Positions 15,483 through 27,871 of a stretch of DNA of 27,879 bases are shown here, piece by piece. The DNA lies in assembly GCA_036562395.1 (NCBI GenBank), contig DATCKF010000040.1, forward strand, positions 1 to 27,879, read 5' to 3'. The DNA is from Bacilli bacterium. GTDB lineage: Bacteria > Bacillota_I > Bacilli_A > ML615J-28 > CAG-698. Numbering within the stretch: the stretch's first letter is position 1; each line of letters begins with the position of its first letter. The position numbers were made by a program, and so were the translations under genes. The notes under the pieces are model-generated. The model made no database searches. It was not told the DNA's origin and worked only from the letters and a program-made list of their open reading frames with translations.

Positions 15483-17327
15483 ATGGAAATGAGAATATCA
15501 AAAACAATGTTCAAAGAATATACACGTTGTCCACGGGTATGTGCATTAGATGATATTTATATGAAAAAATTAAATACTCATGTTTCCCCATTCGCAAACG
15601 ATGAATATTTTGATATTTTAGAAACATTACATTTAATGTTTGATGAAGAAACCGGTGAAGATTTAATAGATATTACTGATCCCCAACATGAAGCGTTATT
15701 ACCTTATTATCAACAATTAGAAGACTATGCAATGGAAGTTGCGAAAAGGAAATTTGGCAATAATATTATCCACAATATTGATGTGAAAAAGCAAAAGAGT
15801 TTTAACTTTTTTGATAATTATAATCATGAATATTATTGCTATCTGGATGGCTTTCAAGAAACAGATGATGAAGTCAGAGTCTTTGAAGTTAAAGCAACAA
15901 CTTCAAAAAAGTTTCAAACTTTAGGACCAGTAATTAAAAATCGTCAATATTCTATTTTTGAATGTAAAGATAACATTATGAAAATTTCTAATGAAGTGGA
16001 AATGAGTGATGAAAAGTTCATTAGTAATTATCAAAAATTATTTGATCGCTATTCAGATTGTGGGAAATATGTTTATGATCTTGCAATTGAAAGATACTTT
16101 ATTGAAAAAAGTTGTGAACAGTTTCATATTTATCAAAATAAAAAATTTACATATTATTTAGTGGTTTTAAACAGTGATTATACATTTGATGGAAAATATG
16201 TTGATGGGAAAATGGCATATAAACCTGATCAAAATGGTCAAGAAATTGTTACATTTATTAACTTAACTGATGTTACAAGTCAATGTTTAATTGATATTAA
16301 GTTTAATCATCGACGTTTACAAAAATATCTTGAAGACTTAAAAGTAAATGATTACCAATTAGGAGAATTTTGTAGGCGAAAGAAAAAAGATCAATGTTTA
16401 TTTTATAAAATTTGTTGGGAAAAAGTATTAAATGAAGGTTCAATTTTAGAATATTTAGGACTTCATCATGGTTTTCGTGATGAATTAAATAATCGTATTG
16501 AACCACTCGATTTAATCAATAAAGGTTATTATACAATTGATTCCATACCTCGCAAATGGTTGAATCGTAAAAATAATGTAATTCAACGTGATTGTTATGA
16601 TAATAATGTTGAATTTATACATTTTGCGAAAATATTAAGAGGAATTGATACTTTAAAATATCCTTTATATTATCTTGATTTTGAATCATTTAACAGCCCT
16701 TTGCCTAGATTTAAAGGTGAGCACCCTTATCAACAATCCCTTTTTCAATATTCATTGCATATTGAAAAAAGTCCTGGTCAATGTGATTTTGATAAAGATC
16801 ATCAAGATTTCCTTGCTAGTGATTTTGATGATCATCGTATAGAACTCGTTTCGAAGTTAATTAATGATATTGACTTAAAAAATGGGGGAACAGTTATTGT
16901 TTATAATAAAAATTTTGAATATGAAAGAATAAAAGAGTTAATGAAATTATTTCCTCAATATAAAGATCAACTAGAAAATATCAATAAACATATGTTTGAT
17001 TTATTATATTTAATCATGAATAATAAAGAGTTCTATTTGGATTTAGGATTTCCAATTGAAGATGCAGCCATCATTAATTATTACAATAATAAATTACATG
17101 GTTCATATTCAATTAAAAAAGTTCTCCCATTATTTTCAGATCTGACATATCAAGGAATGGAGATTGCTAATGGTACTGAAGCCATAACAGCTTATGCATC
17201 TTTTAAGAATCTTTTACCAGTAGAACTTGAAAAAGTAAAAGAAAATCTAAGGAAATATTGTAAACAAGATACATGGGCTATGTATGTAATATTAATGGGA
17301 TTAAAAAAGAAAGTAGGGTTAATATAA
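15483..17327 (+). CDS. DUF2779 domain protein: N-terminal PD-(D/E)XK/Cas4-like nuclease plus C-terminal RNase H-like (DEDD) domain
   Basis: ISKT-x-FKEY-x-RCP, LDG...FEVKATT, Cys cluster C-x8-C-x5-C; C-terminal YYLDFES, PYQQ-x-x-FQYSLH, VYNKNFE, SIKKVLP, YCKQDT. Confidence 0.8.
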   Translation: MEMRISKTMFKEYTRCPRVCALDDIYMKKLNTHVSPFANDEYFDILETLHLMFDEETGEDLIDITDPQHEALLPYYQQLEDYAMEVAKRKFGNNIIHNIDVKKQKSFNFFDNYNHEYYCYLDGFQETDDEVRVFEVKATTSKKFQTLGPVIKNRQYSIFECKDNIMKISNEVEMSDEKFISNYQKLFDRYSDCGKYVYDLAIERYFIEKSCEQFHIYQNKKFTYYLVVLNSDYTFDGKYVDGKMAYKPDQNGQEIVTFINLTDVTSQCLIDIKFNHRRLQKYLEDLKVNDYQLGEFCRRKKKDQCLFYKICWEKVLNEGSILEYLGLHHGFRDELNNRIEPLDLINKGYYTIDSIPRKWLNRKNNVIQRDCYDNNVEFIHFAKILRGIDTLKYPLYYLDFESFNSPLPRFKGEHPYQQSLFQYSLHIEKSPGQCDFDKDHQDFLASDFDDHRIELVSKLINDIDLKNGGTVIVYNKNFEYERIKELMKLFPQYKDQLENINKHMFDLLYLIMNNKEFYLDLGFPIEDAAIINYYNNKLHGSYSIKKVLPLFSDLTYQGMEIANGTEAITAYASFKNLLPVELEKVKENLRKYCKQDTWAMYVILMGLKKKVGLI

Positions 17328-25181: not shown

Positions 25182-25209
25182 AAGAGACCTTAATGGTCTC
25201 TATCTTTTT
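25181..25209. terminator. bidirectional intrinsic terminator
   Basis: AGAGACC-ttaat-GGTCTCT with an A-tract before and a T-rich tract after, between convergent genes. Confidence 0.8.
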
Positions 25210-25970
25210 ATTAATCCTACGATTTTTATTTGCTTTTTCTTATGTGGTTCGACTTTATCAACAATCAATTTTAAGATATTATCATCAACAACATAAATGT
25301 TCTGTTCTTCGTCATCAATTAAAACTTTTTCTATTTCGTAATCATCAGGAAGTAACGTTTTAACTTCAACATCCGTTGCCACTTCATTACCGATGTTTTC
25401 AAGATTAATTTTATAATCATATGGTTTATTTGGATAAACGACATCAATTTCTTCAATATCACATAGAATCTTTGCAAATTTCTTTGTTAAAACAACAGGA
25501 TCAGTTTTTAATGTGTTATTATTATCAACTGTAACTGTTGAAGTTGATGTTAAATTATCATATTCTTCTTCATATTCATCAACTACAGTTTGATATGTTA
25601 TATATAAACTGCGATGTGGTTGCAGATTGGAAATAATAAATTCCAATTGATTATCCCGTTTGATAAATTTAAAAGGTTGTGCTGATTCAATACAAGATAA
25701 TTTTACTGATCCATCAACAAGCTTTTGACGATTGATATCTTCGTGAACGATTACTTCCTCTGCTGGATAATTACCTTCATTAGTTAAGATGATATTATAT
25801 GTTACAATATCACCAGGTTTAAAAAATTGGGTATCAGCAAACCGTTTAATTTTGACCAATACTTCACGAATCGTCGGATTTACCGCATTAGAATTTGTCC
25901 TTCCTTGAACAATCATATCACCTAAACTATAGTTATAATTGACTATTGCTCTCGTTTTTGTATTTTTCAT
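25200..25970 (-). CDS. DUF11 (conserved repeat domain)-like protein with two beta-sandwich repeats
   Basis: PGDIVTYNIILTNEGNYPAEEVIVHEDI and PNKPYDYKINLENIGNEVATDVEVKTLLP match the DUF11 pattern; RBS AGGAGG; no signal peptide. Confidence 0.75.
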   Translation of the reverse strand: MKNTKTRAIVNYNYSLGDMIVQGRTNSNAVNPTIREVLVKIKRFADTQFFKPGDIVTYNIILTNEGNYPAEEVIVHEDINRQKLVDGSVKLSCIESAQPFKFIKRDNQLEFIISNLQPHRSLYITYQTVVDEYEEEYDNLTSTSTVTVDNNNTLKTDPVVLTKKFAKILCDIEEIDVVYPNKPYDYKINLENIGNEVATDVEVKTLLPDDYEIEKVLIDDEEQNIYVVDDNILKLIVDKVEPHKKKQIKIVGLIKR

Positions 25971-25993
25971 AATCGAATCCTCCTATCTATAAA

Positions 25994-26021
25994 AATATAT
26001 GACTAAAAAATACAATTATGT
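25994..26021 (-). promoter_or_regulatory. sigmaE/sigmaK-like (mother-cell type) promoter of the DUF11 gene
   Basis: Minus strand ACATAAT-N13-CATATATT, just upstream of the RBS; no clear sigmaA promoter seen there. Confidence 0.5.
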
Positions 26022-26115
26022 ATACAACCTATTAATTTCTATATGTTTGTACATAGCAATTTGTAATGTCAATCTTTAGAATTTTTCATAATATATATTG
26101 AAAGGAGGAATAGTT

Positions 26116-26253
26116 ATGACAACAGTAAATCAATGCGGTAATATTAATCCATGTTGCGATAATACATTATATGGTTTTAGAAGAGGAAACAACTTTGCTT
26201 TTGTACTTGTGCTCTTTATCCTACTAGTAATTGTTGGAGCTGCTTGGTTCTAA
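26116..26253 (+). CDS. YjcZ/SscA family small sporulation membrane peptide (45 aa)
   Basis: Not in the track. MTTVNQCGNINPCCDNTLYGFRRGNNFAFVLVLFILLVIVGAAWF; the C-terminal FAFVLVLFILLVIVGA is the family signature (F-x-x-I/V-V-V-L-F-I-L-L-I-I-V-G-A); strong RBS AAAGGAGG. Confidence 0.88.
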   Translation: MTTVNQCGNINPCCDNTLYGFRRGNNFAFVLVLFILLVIVGAAWF

Positions 26254-26259
26254 TTGCCT

Positions 26260-26282
26260 AAAGAGGATAGCTGTCCTCTTTT
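26260..26282 (+). terminator. intrinsic terminator after the YjcZ-like gene
   Basis: AAAGAGGA-tagctg-TCCTCTTT-T. Confidence 0.7.
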
Positions 26283-26300
26283 ATAATGGAGGTGTGAAAG

Positions 26301-26459
26301 ATGAATAACCGTGAAGTTCGTAGTCTTTCTCAACTGATAAATCAAGCAATTGATGCATATGAAACGTTATTAAGGGACTTACAATATCGTGAAGTAAGGC
26401 CTAAAAAGCGTTCAAATTTTGGAAAGATTAAAGAATTTCTATTCAAAAGAGTGTTTTAA
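26301..26459 (+). CDS. small hypothetical protein (52 aa)
   Basis: Not in the track. MNNREVRSLSQLINQAIDAYETLLRDLQYREVRPKKRSNFGKIKEFLFKRVF; RBS GGAGGTG and its own terminator. Confidence 0.7.
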   Translation: MNNREVRSLSQLINQAIDAYETLLRDLQYREVRPKKRSNFGKIKEFLFKRVF

Positions 26460-26476
26460 CAGTAAATAAAAATACA

Positions 26477-26509
26477 AAGAACAGACGTAAATGTCTGTTT
26501 TTTCTTTTT
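26477..26509 (+). terminator. intrinsic terminator after the 52-aa ORF
   Basis: AACAGAC-gtaaat-GTCTGTT-TTTTCTTTTT. Confidence 0.8.
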
Positions 26510-26567
26510 ACTTCGACATATTCTTTTATAATTTCTCAAAAAATTGAGAAAATTTACAAAAAAATAC

Positions 26568-26596
26568 TTGCAATTTTATTTTCATTATGTTAGAAT
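26568..26596 (+). promoter_or_regulatory. sigmaA promoter of the riboswitch-mreB transcript
   Basis: TTGCAA (26568-73), 17 nt spacer, TGt-TAGAAT (26591-96); predicted +1 near 26603, just before riboswitch P1. Confidence 0.8.
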
Positions 26597-26607
26597 TTAA
26601 GTGTGTA

Positions 26608-26704
26608 AAATAAATATTCAAAGGGCAACTACTCGGAAACGATTAGAACGCAAAGTCACAGAGCTAAGGAGAAATCTATGCTGGCTGGGCCGCAATATTT
26701 ATTT
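26608..26704 (+). promoter_or_regulatory. cyclic di-GMP-I (GEMM) riboswitch aptamer
   Basis: P1 AAATAAATATT (26608-18)/AATATTTATTT (26694-704), 11 bp; J1/2 CAAAGGGC; P2 CTACTCG-GAAA-CGATTAG with GNRA loop, then ACGCAAAG; P3 GTCACAG-AGC-TAAGG...CTAT-GCT-GG-CTG-GGC with tetraloop-receptor-type TAAG/TATG. Equivalents of Vc2 G20 (26624), A47 (26652) and C92 (26693) are in register. Confidence 0.93.
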
Positions 26705-26775
26705 AAAAGATTATCATTTGACACCTTATGCCTGCTCGCATATTTTTTTGTGATATCTTAAATATTGCCAGGAAC

Positions 26776-26805
26776 GCTCCTTTGAATAAGGGAGTTTTTT
26801 GTTTT
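26776..26805 (+). terminator. riboswitch-controlled intrinsic terminator (expression platform)
   Basis: GCTCCTTT-gaat-AAGGGAGT followed by TTTTTGTTTT, between the aptamer and the mreB RBS. Confidence 0.85.
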
Positions 26806-26833
26806 GCACAAAAAATCTTTTAAGGAGGATAGT

Positions 26834-27871
26834 ATGAATGACAACAGACAGCAGAAGGGCAGAATGAATGTCGGAGTAGACTTAGGTACTTCTAGCCTTC
26901 TCATTTATGTTGAAGGTCGAGGAACTGTCTTCAATGAACCCTCGATCATTGCTGTTGACAAAGCAACCAAGAAAGTCGTTGCTGTTGGTTATGAAGCTGC
27001 GCAATTAGTTGGTAAAGTTCATGATAAGGTTGAAGTAGTTCGACCTTTGCAAGGCGGAGTGATTTCGGATGTGGAAATGATTCGTGAGATCTTACTTTAC
27101 ACTTTCGAAAAATTGTTTGGTGATAGTGATTCAAAGATCAATCGATTGTTGATGTGTGTACCTTCAGGAATTACTGAAACTGAAAAGCAAGCGATGATTA
27201 AGTTAGGTCAAGAATTAGGTGTTGATGACATGCGCATCGAAGAAGAAATTAAAGCCGCTGCAATTGGTGGTGGAATTGATATCTTCGTGCCATTAGGACA
27301 TTTAGTTGTTGACATTGGTGGTGGAACAACTGATTTTGGTGTTTTAGCACTTGGTGATGTTGTTCTTGGTCGTTCAACAAAAGTAGCAGGCGACGAGTTT
27401 GATCGTCAAATTACAAATTATGTAAAAGAAAAACACAAACTCGAAATTGGACCTCAAACCGCTGAAAGAATTAAAATTCATCTAGCATCTTTAACTGGTG
27501 ATTATCCTGAAGATGAAGAAGGAAACGTAGTTACTTATAATGCGATGGGTCGAGATTTAGTAACAGGTTTACCAAAAATGGTTGTTATTGAAGCTCATGA
27601 GATTCGATCAATTTTATTAAGTTGTTTTGAAACAATAAAATCAACATTAATTGCAACTTTAGAATCGACACCACCAGAATTATCAGGTGACTTAGTTGAT
27701 ACTGGCATTCTTGTAACTGGAGGAGGAGCTTTAATTAAAGGTATTAAAGAATACTTCGAAGATATTACAGGAGTGAAAGTAGAGGTTGCAACTTCACCAA
27801 TTACAGCTGTAATTGATGGAACAAAACGTCTTTTAAAAATCAATAGCCACCATTATTATGGGGAGTATTAG
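26834..27871 (+). CDS. mreB: actin-like protein MreB, Spiroplasma/Haloplasma-type (345 aa)
   Basis: GVDLGTS, NEPSIIA, RPLQGGVISD, VPSGITE, VDIGGGTTD, GRDLVTGLP, TPPELSGD, TGGGALI. Start is ATG 26834 behind AAGGAGG; the track's TTG 26804 lies in the terminator tail. Confidence 0.95.
   Translation: MNDNRQQKGRMNVGVDLGTSSLLIYVEGRGTVFNEPSIIAVDKATKKVVAVGYEAAQLVGKVHDKVEVVRPLQGGVISDVEMIREILLYTFEKLFGDSDSKINRLLMCVPSGITETEKQAMIKLGQELGVDDMRIEEEIKAAAIGGGIDIFVPLGHLVVDIGGGTTDFGVLALGDVVLGRSTKVAGDEFDRQITNYVKEKHKLEIGPQTAERIKIHLASLTGDYPEDEEGNVVTYNAMGRDLVTGLPKMVVIEAHEIRSILLSCFETIKSTLIATLESTPPELSGDLVDTGILVTGGGALIKGIKEYFEDITGVKVEVATSPITAVIDGTKRLLKINSHHYYGEY

Follow-up and report, generated by a model that had tools for sequence, protein, structure and literature searches.

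YjcZ-family peptides and the window locus

The YjcZ family (TIGR01732 tiny_TM_bacill; PF09680 YjcZ_2), to which B. subtilis YjcZ belongs, consists of tiny peptides in which a variable head is followed by a near-invariant helix. B. subtilis yjcZ has been assigned to the sigK regulon (PMC517825), and SscA, a 28-aa, safA-dependent inner-coat protein of the same family, is needed for normal levels of CotB, CotG, and CotH (PMC13417171). The termini of the Bacillus family members are rich in glycine and aromatic residues (Fozo et al., PMC2887945). Here we analyzed a gene for a 45-residue peptide of this family in a 27,879-nt window, which is the entire contig C70 of the Bacilli MAG (G000). The window peptide shares with the described members the size class, the bipartite layout, the presence of several paralogs per genome, the restriction to genomes with sporulation genes, and a sigK-like −10 element. 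It differs from the Bacillus members in that its head is rich in cysteine, asparagine, and proline instead of glycine and aromatic residues, and in that its host belongs to an uncultured, small-genome lineage related to mollicutes. In addition, the gap between its promoter-like elements is 12 nt, compared to 15 ± 1 nt in B. subtilis sigK promoters. SscA is shorter (28 vs. 45 aa), and a role in coat assembly for the window peptide would be borrowed from SscA by analogy.

With this gene, a known family that is annotated routinely gains a new member, and near-identical homologs have been named by the NCBI pipeline. The protein HHU55248.1 ([quoted passage not shown]) shares 87% identity with the window peptide across 44 aa and belongs to the same long-head class, but its head has two cysteines (NCC) where the window peptide has three (C...NPCC); from its sequence, it is probably the ortholog in a sister species. 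The same product name is given to homologs in MAGs labelled Bacilli, Acholeplasmatales, Anaeroplasma, and Erysipelotrichaceae. Taken as a whole, the explanation that we consider likely is a working gene for a YjcZ/SscA (YhzE) sporulation peptide with the role proposed below.

Coding signal and family membership

26116–26253, plus strand: coding sequence of the 45-aa long-head YjcZ-family peptide (PF09680 and TIGR01732), with a hydrophobic helix after the Cys-rich head
26101–26108, plus strand: ribosome-binding site AAAGGAGG, 7 nt 5′ of the ATG; GAAAGG(A/T)GG is conserved in orthologs

The open reading frame extends from the ATG at 26116 to the TAA at 26251–26253, and its product, MTTVNQCGNINPCCDNTLYGFRRGNNFAFVLVLFILLVIVGAAWF, carries cysteines at positions 7, 13, and 14 of the head. 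A first-pass annotation, made from the DNA alone, had noted a strong ribosome-binding site and three N-terminal cysteines and had placed the peptide in the YjcZ/SscA family. All three observations hold, the last by the HMM search that the annotation itself had proposed, in which PF09680 (40 bits, E 2.8e-10, curated cut-off 21) and TIGR01732 (36.6 bits, E 2.8e-09, curated cut-off 21.35) both matched above their curated cut-offs. With its 45 residues, its variable head, and its conserved C-terminal hydrophobic helix, the peptide also falls within the size range of about 25–60 aa of the family.

Comparison of the 16 hydrophobic-core codons with a genome of the same genus revealed seven synonymous and no non-synonymous differences, and the same codons in G007, from another genus, differ by 14 synonymous and one non-synonymous substitutions. 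Judged by these substitution patterns, the 45-codon frame is a real gene under strong purifying selection. An alternative start codon (TTG, 26098) would add six residues but falls within the ribosome-binding site. Several homologs in the databases begin with “KGGV”, which is the ribosome-binding site in translation; thus, the starts of these entries have probably been called too early.

The exact 45-aa protein was already present in the protein collection, on 20 contigs and with NCBI among its sources. A phmmer search against 1.8 billion proteins yielded just seven matches, as a peptide of 45 aa is too short a query for so large a library, and two of these seven are long repetitive proteins that align to the Cys/Asn head.

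Peptide architecture and paralog classes

Across 21 aligned long-head peptides, M1, A28, L31–L37, I39, G41, and A43 are invariant, including the complete LVLFILL core. This conservation is tighter than a generic hydrophobic segment needs and points to specific packing of the helix, either by self-assembly or by binding of a partner. An AlphaFold2 model built on this alignment has a helix spanning residues 23–43, with a pLDDT of 95 over residues 31–40, and a low-confidence head. The peptide is thus predicted to consist of a disordered head of ~23 residues with the three cysteines and a near-invariant hydrophobic helix of 19–21 residues that extends to the C-terminus.

A further family gene of the MAG, for a peptide of 32 aa (MYQRGYGFYGNNFAF...), is located where the ends of contigs C54 and C36 overlap. 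Because of this overlap, the three HMM matches in the MAG represent two genes. Both contig ends carry the same short-head gene with an identical upstream region, and the assembly was split inside or beside it. Two to three copies per genome are found in the relatives, and up to 11 in other families of the class. In both sampled families of the order, the copies fall into a long class (40–51 aa), with two to five cysteines in every head, and a short class (29–36 aa) with zero to two head cysteines. Long-class heads follow the consensus CC-x3-NP-CC, and in the window peptide a glycine replaces one cysteine of the first pair.

A search with a long-head profile, in which the 8,000 candidates sharing most words were scored, identified at least 1,382 clusters at 90% identity. 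The head has two to seven cysteines in all 118 top matches with a locatable core motif, and a CC pair in 116. Because the profile included the head, this result demonstrates that the Cys-rich subclass is large and not what share of the family it represents. On this sequence comparison, the Cys-rich long-head peptides are a distinct, large, and conserved subclass, which is a modestly new point. Cys-rich proteins that are thought to be cross-linked by disulfides also occur in the outer spore layers of B. subtilis (CotY/CotZ) and C. difficile (CdeC/CdeM). They serve as a model for a possible function of the head. These proteins are far larger and have no sequence relation to the window peptide, and their likeness to its head is a matter of functional speculation.

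Co-distribution with sporulation and cell-wall genes

To follow the family across the order, we compared 41 genomes with sizes of 1.0–2.1 Mb, namely the MAG itself and 40 relatives that belong to two families of a single order. PF09680 matches and SpoIVA were found in the identical 28 genomes and were both missing from the identical 13. All genomes without the two genes belong to the MAG's own family (f1), in which 11 of 24 relatives have kept them, and one genus contains genomes of both kinds; in the other family, they are present in 16 of 16 genomes. About half of the sampled genera in the MAG's family lack the sporulation gene set. Every sampled genome of the order with SpoIVA encodes two YjcZ-class peptides. 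MurG has the same distribution as SpoIVA and YjcZ (28/41 present, 13/41 missing), so that within the order a link to sporulation and a link to the cell wall are inseparable. The two are separated by a sample of 101 genomes from the class, in which YjcZ accompanies a true SpoIVA in 26 of 31 genomes, but is missing from all 29 MurG-positive, SpoIVA-negative genomes and from all 41 MurG-negative genomes. As related genomes are not independent and the counts are of genomes rather than of loss events, this co-distribution is strong qualitative support and not a statistical test.

The exact co-distribution of YjcZ peptides with SpoIVA in the 41 genomes is a modest novelty, and identifies these peptides as a part of the sporulation programme that outlasts heavy genome reduction. 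Their retention together with SpoIVA points to a role more central than the redundant Bacillus paralogs would imply. A bolder version of this idea, in which YjcZ-class peptides, far from being accessory, would anchor a minimal spore coat as part of its structural core and the CC-x3-NP-CC head would be its cross-linking point, we regard as doubtful. YjcZ-type peptides could also serve as simple markers to predict spore formation in uncultured gut bacteria. In the class sample, one contig (C1) of genome G086 has a SpoIVA match broken into several pieces, some of the smaller ones with in-frame stops, together with two weak YjcZ matches; this lineage may have decaying sporulation genes.

The distribution also bears on the possibility that the product is a toxin-like membrane peptide of type I, controlled by an antisense RNA, and not a component of the spore. 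The YhzE family has been listed among type I toxin candidates; some of its members are encoded by phages and plasmids, and an antisense sRNA to yhzE-2 has been detected (PMC2887945). In line with this, the window peptide is small and hydrophobic and has paralogs. However, YhzE-2 was not toxic in E. coli or B. subtilis (PMC2887945, Fozo et al. 2010), YjcZ is restricted to genomes with SpoIVA, the conserved elements upstream of the gene are of the mother-cell type (see below), and a scan of the minus strand from 25900 to 26850 detected no sigma-70-like promoter. A toxin function is therefore highly improbable, and a sporulation peptide remains the preferred reading.

Sporulation gene set of the host lineage

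The MAG comprises 947,757 bases in 173 contigs (60.6% complete, 1.55% contaminated, 30% GC). The long open reading frames of the window are all open under translation table 11, indicating that the organism uses the standard code and not the Mycoplasma code. The first-pass description of the genome as mollicute-like is reflected in the database names of relatives (Acholeplasmataceae bacterium), but is at odds with the standard code and the presence of MurG (242 bits). A contig search with MnmG gave Spiroplasma records alone, at 55–56% identity; this outcome is an artefact of matching AT-rich patterns in a set that omits close records, and was set aside as a placement.

The MAG encodes Spo0A (305 bits, cut-off 200), SpoIVA (502 bits, cut-off 460; broken by a contig end), and a cluster in the order ftsZ, a 235-aa open reading frame, sigE, and sigG, in which SigE scores 308 bits with SigE as its best match and SigG scores 398 bits (cut-off 372). 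The 235-aa frame, located in the position of spoIIGA, had no family match. The C-terminal half of SigK is found at a contig end. In the MAG (60.6% complete), searches for SpoIIE and SASP gave no match; in a 95%-complete congener, SASP reaches 78 bits, SigK, present in full, 284 bits, and a divergent SpoIIE-like protein 162 bits, which is below the cut-off. The suggestion of the first-pass annotation that the lineage keeps, or recently lost, sporulation is thus supported by Spo0A, SpoIVA, SigE, SigG, and a partial SigK in the MAG and by the full SigK and SASP of the congener. The gene check that it had outlined came out positive, as spo0A, spoIVA, sigE, sigG, and sigK were recovered; SpoIIIAA was not found in the five genomes searched, and SpoIIE stayed below the cut-off.

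Sporulation genes in orders related to mollicutes were already reported in 2024 (PMC10868615). That study describes several losses each of sporulation and peptidoglycan in the orders around Mycoplasmatales, reports ~25 sporulation genes kept by ~50% of the ML615J-28 family CAG-698 and ~90% of CAG-313, and predicts limited or fragile sporulation at best for ML615J-28; it makes no mention of YjcZ. Our proportions for the two families (11 of 24 and 16 of 16) agree with these figures, which makes ML615J-28 a tentative guess for the order studied here. Our gene content comparison supports a lineage that keeps a reduced sporulation gene set together with cell-wall genes, both of which sister genera have lost.

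The sporulation programme of the SpoIVA-positive relatives looks unusually reduced. SpoIIIAA was missing from the five genomes searched, including the SpoIVA-positive, 95%-complete G001 and G007, and SpoIIIAE was not found in five SpoIVA-positive relatives that are all at least 94% complete (G001, G002, G007, G024, and G027). The SpoIIE-like proteins of G001 and G007 reach 162–196 bits against a cut-off of 491, and each of five genomes has just one SigF/G-type sigma factor above the SigBFG cut-off, which adjoins sigE in at least G001, G007, and G024. Together with the ~25 residual genes and the limited or fragile sporulation predicted for ML615J-28 (PMC10868615), these gaps would fit a relic or repurposed peptide, retained with a cut-down sporulation set by organisms that form no true endospores, and serving another function in the envelope or in differentiation. 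We consider this quite unlikely, given the strong purifying selection on the core codons, the joint retention or loss of the peptide with SpoIVA, and the intact SigE, SigK, SigG, SASP, and Spo0A (full SigK and SASP in the congener). Moreover, SpoIIIAE was detected in only one family of the class-wide sample, and other SpoIVA-positive, YjcZ-rich families, with up to 11 YjcZ copies, had no match either, so that its absence under the model used is not diagnostic. Borderline SpoVM-like matches (20–24 bits) occur in seven SpoIVA-positive relatives; the idea that YjcZ replaces SpoVM as the anchor of SpoIVA was dropped because SpoVM is probably present but divergent.

Promoter-like elements upstream of the peptide gene

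26086–26095, plus strand: −10 block TCATAATATA of the mother-cell sigma type, sigK-like, which fits GCATANNNTA at 9 of 10 positions
26069–26073, plus strand: −35-like box TCAAT, 12 nt 5′ of TCATAATATA, conserved in long-head orthologs of both families

B. subtilis provides the reference promoters. The sigK consensus is KCACM at −35 and GCATANNNTA at −10 (PMC3416734) with a gap of 15 ± 1 nt (PMC517825), and that of sigE is TYATATTT and KCATANANTN (PMC3416734) with a gap of 12 nt (PMC517825); the −10 elements quoted for the forespore factors are CAWAMTA for sigG and GGNAANAMTR for sigF (PMC3416734).

The first-pass annotation had recognized a match to the sigK −10 consensus, CATAATATA, at 26087–26095. 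With 30 occurrences of CATANNNTA in the window against 31.5 expected, the bare motif is at the frequency of chance and the match alone is without weight; what carries it is conservation in orthologs. The long-head orthologs examined in both families have (T/G)CATAnnnTA at an equal distance from the ribosome-binding site, with the CATA and the terminal TA kept; the pattern search missed some orthologs, and these statements refer to those examined. The annotation had also seen no convincing −35 element. A conserved box does exist at 26069–26073, although its distance is non-canonical (12 nt vs. 15 ± 1). The 5-mer is TCAAT in the MAG and TCACA, TCATA, or xCACT in orthologs, and fits the B. subtilis KCACM at three of five positions in the MAG and at all five in three orthologs. 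In every ortholog examined, the gap between the box and the −10 block is 12 nt, 3 nt below the B. subtilis sigK optimum.

The spoIVA upstream regions of 15 relatives (L047–L061) served as an internal control and contain TCATATTT, a gap of 12 nt, and (C/A)ATA..., which is a textbook sigE promoter. In one family, the −10 block of spoIVA begins with AATAT rather than CATAT. The promoter of the peptide gene, as far as its motifs tell, clearly differs in type from the sigE promoters of spoIVA and of the adjacent DUF11 gene (see below) in the same genomes. Both the −35 5-mer and the −10 block, down to its last A, would fit sigK, but the gap does not. The short gap may reflect a lineage-specific sigK geometry, dual use by sigE and sigK, or a regulator site. 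Since textbook sigE promoters are present in the lineage, this conserved short-gap promoter, a further modestly new point from the sequence comparison, offers a clean test of the spacing of mother-cell sigma factors.

A shifted −10 element that would restore the canonical sigE spacing was rejected, as it fits only two of six orthologs and CATA is invariant 3 nt upstream. A genome-wide scan of the MAG for a preferred −35/−10 gap gave no peak, with counts too low for one to emerge. The short-head paralogs of family f2 (L030, L034–L036, and L038) share an upstream CGTA(A/G)(T/A)ATA in place of CATAnnnTA, which looks like a −10 element that is degenerate or of another type.

The spacing also leaves room for a peptide that is linked to sporulation but synthesized in the forespore or controlled by a different regulator, with the upstream box as a repressor or activator site instead of a −35 element. 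The box lies 3 nt too near for canonical sigK or sigE geometry, and in several orthologs it is located within a repeated TGTCAT/TATCAC element. However, KCATAnnnTA fits the sigK −10 and not CAWAMTA of sigG, no match to GGNAANAMTR of sigF is evident, and yjcZ of B. subtilis is sigK-dependent (PMC517825). We thus regard this arrangement as very unlikely and favor expression in the mother cell.

Gene neighborhood

26260–26281, plus strand: hairpin AAAGAGGAT-AGCT-GTCCTCTTT followed by TATAAT (9 bp, −10.2 kcal/mol)
26301–26459, plus strand: 52-aa partner open reading frame with the ribosome-binding site GGAGG at 26288–26292
26476–26503, plus strand: strong intrinsic terminator, a 12-bp stem followed by a T run, which ends the two-gene unit
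25200–25970, minus strand: divergent gene for a 256-aa DUF11-repeat protein (PF01345, PF24595, and TIGR01451)
25993–26021, minus strand: sigE-type promoter of the DUF11 gene, ACATAATT - 11 nt - TCATATATTT, with the same architecture in orthologs

The first-pass annotation had assigned the peptide gene a terminator of its own. A hairpin does follow the gene, and the stem AAAGAGGA..TCCTCTTT, with variable loops, recurs 3′ of the orthologs in four other genera; but at 26260–26281 the terminator scan made no call, and the hairpin does not differ significantly from shuffled sequences (z = −1.3). It may act weakly, as a terminator or attenuator that separates the peptide gene from the small gene 3′ of it. 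In relatives of family f1, an open reading frame of 52–75 aa with the C-terminal motif [IV]K[DEN]FL[FY][KR] is found 3′ of the long-head peptide gene. The 52-aa product of the window had no Pfam or NCBIfam family match. As the partner frame starts 3 nt past the stop codon of the peptide gene in two genera, the two genes probably form a single transcription unit, within which the hairpin would act as an attenuator.

On the other side, the DUF11 protein matches PF01345 (43.7 bits), PF24595 (44.5 bits), and TIGR01451 (34.4 bits), has no obvious signal peptide, and is 254–264 aa long across the MAG's family. In every locus examined, the DUF11 gene lies beside a YjcZ gene (in G014 as judged by coordinates), and the DUF11 protein of the window, used as a query, matched solely in SpoIVA-positive f1 genomes (10/41, counting G000). 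Its promoter is conserved across orthologs as (G/A)CATAA(A/T)T - 11 nt - TCATATATT(T/G) and resembles the spoIVA promoters of the relatives and the B. subtilis TYATATTT/KCATANANTN consensus. From these features, the DUF11 protein is a candidate spore-surface or coat protein. In family f1, the DUF11 gene, the long-head peptide gene, and the 52–75 aa partner form a fixed three-gene module, which is also modestly new.

Proposed role in the spore

The peptide gene would probably be transcribed in the mother cell during sporulation from the sigK-like promoter, possibly by both sigE and sigK. The transcript is probably shared with the small downstream gene, with the intervening hairpin lowering read-through. 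By analogy to SscA of B. subtilis, the helix may be packed into either the inner coat or the outer membrane of the forespore; it need not span a membrane, since B. subtilis spores display fusions made to the C-terminus of SscA. In such a position, the Cys-rich head would be turned toward the coat during its assembly and could form disulfide or metal cross-links, for which the product of the adjacent divergent DUF11 gene is a candidate partner.

Other features of the window

A precursor of a RiPP or bacteriocin was also considered for the peptide and rejected, since no maturation or export genes adjoin the gene and its distribution tracks SpoIVA. Elsewhere in the window, a 614-aa open reading frame (15483–17327, plus strand) has a weak match (57 bits, cut-off 225) to the UU173 family, which is known from Ureaplasma. 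Downstream of the peptide locus, a c-di-GMP-I riboswitch (RF01051, 50 bits, gathering score 35) is found at 26614–26697 on the plus strand, 5′ of an mreB-like gene (26804–27871), and belongs to a unit separate from the peptide gene.
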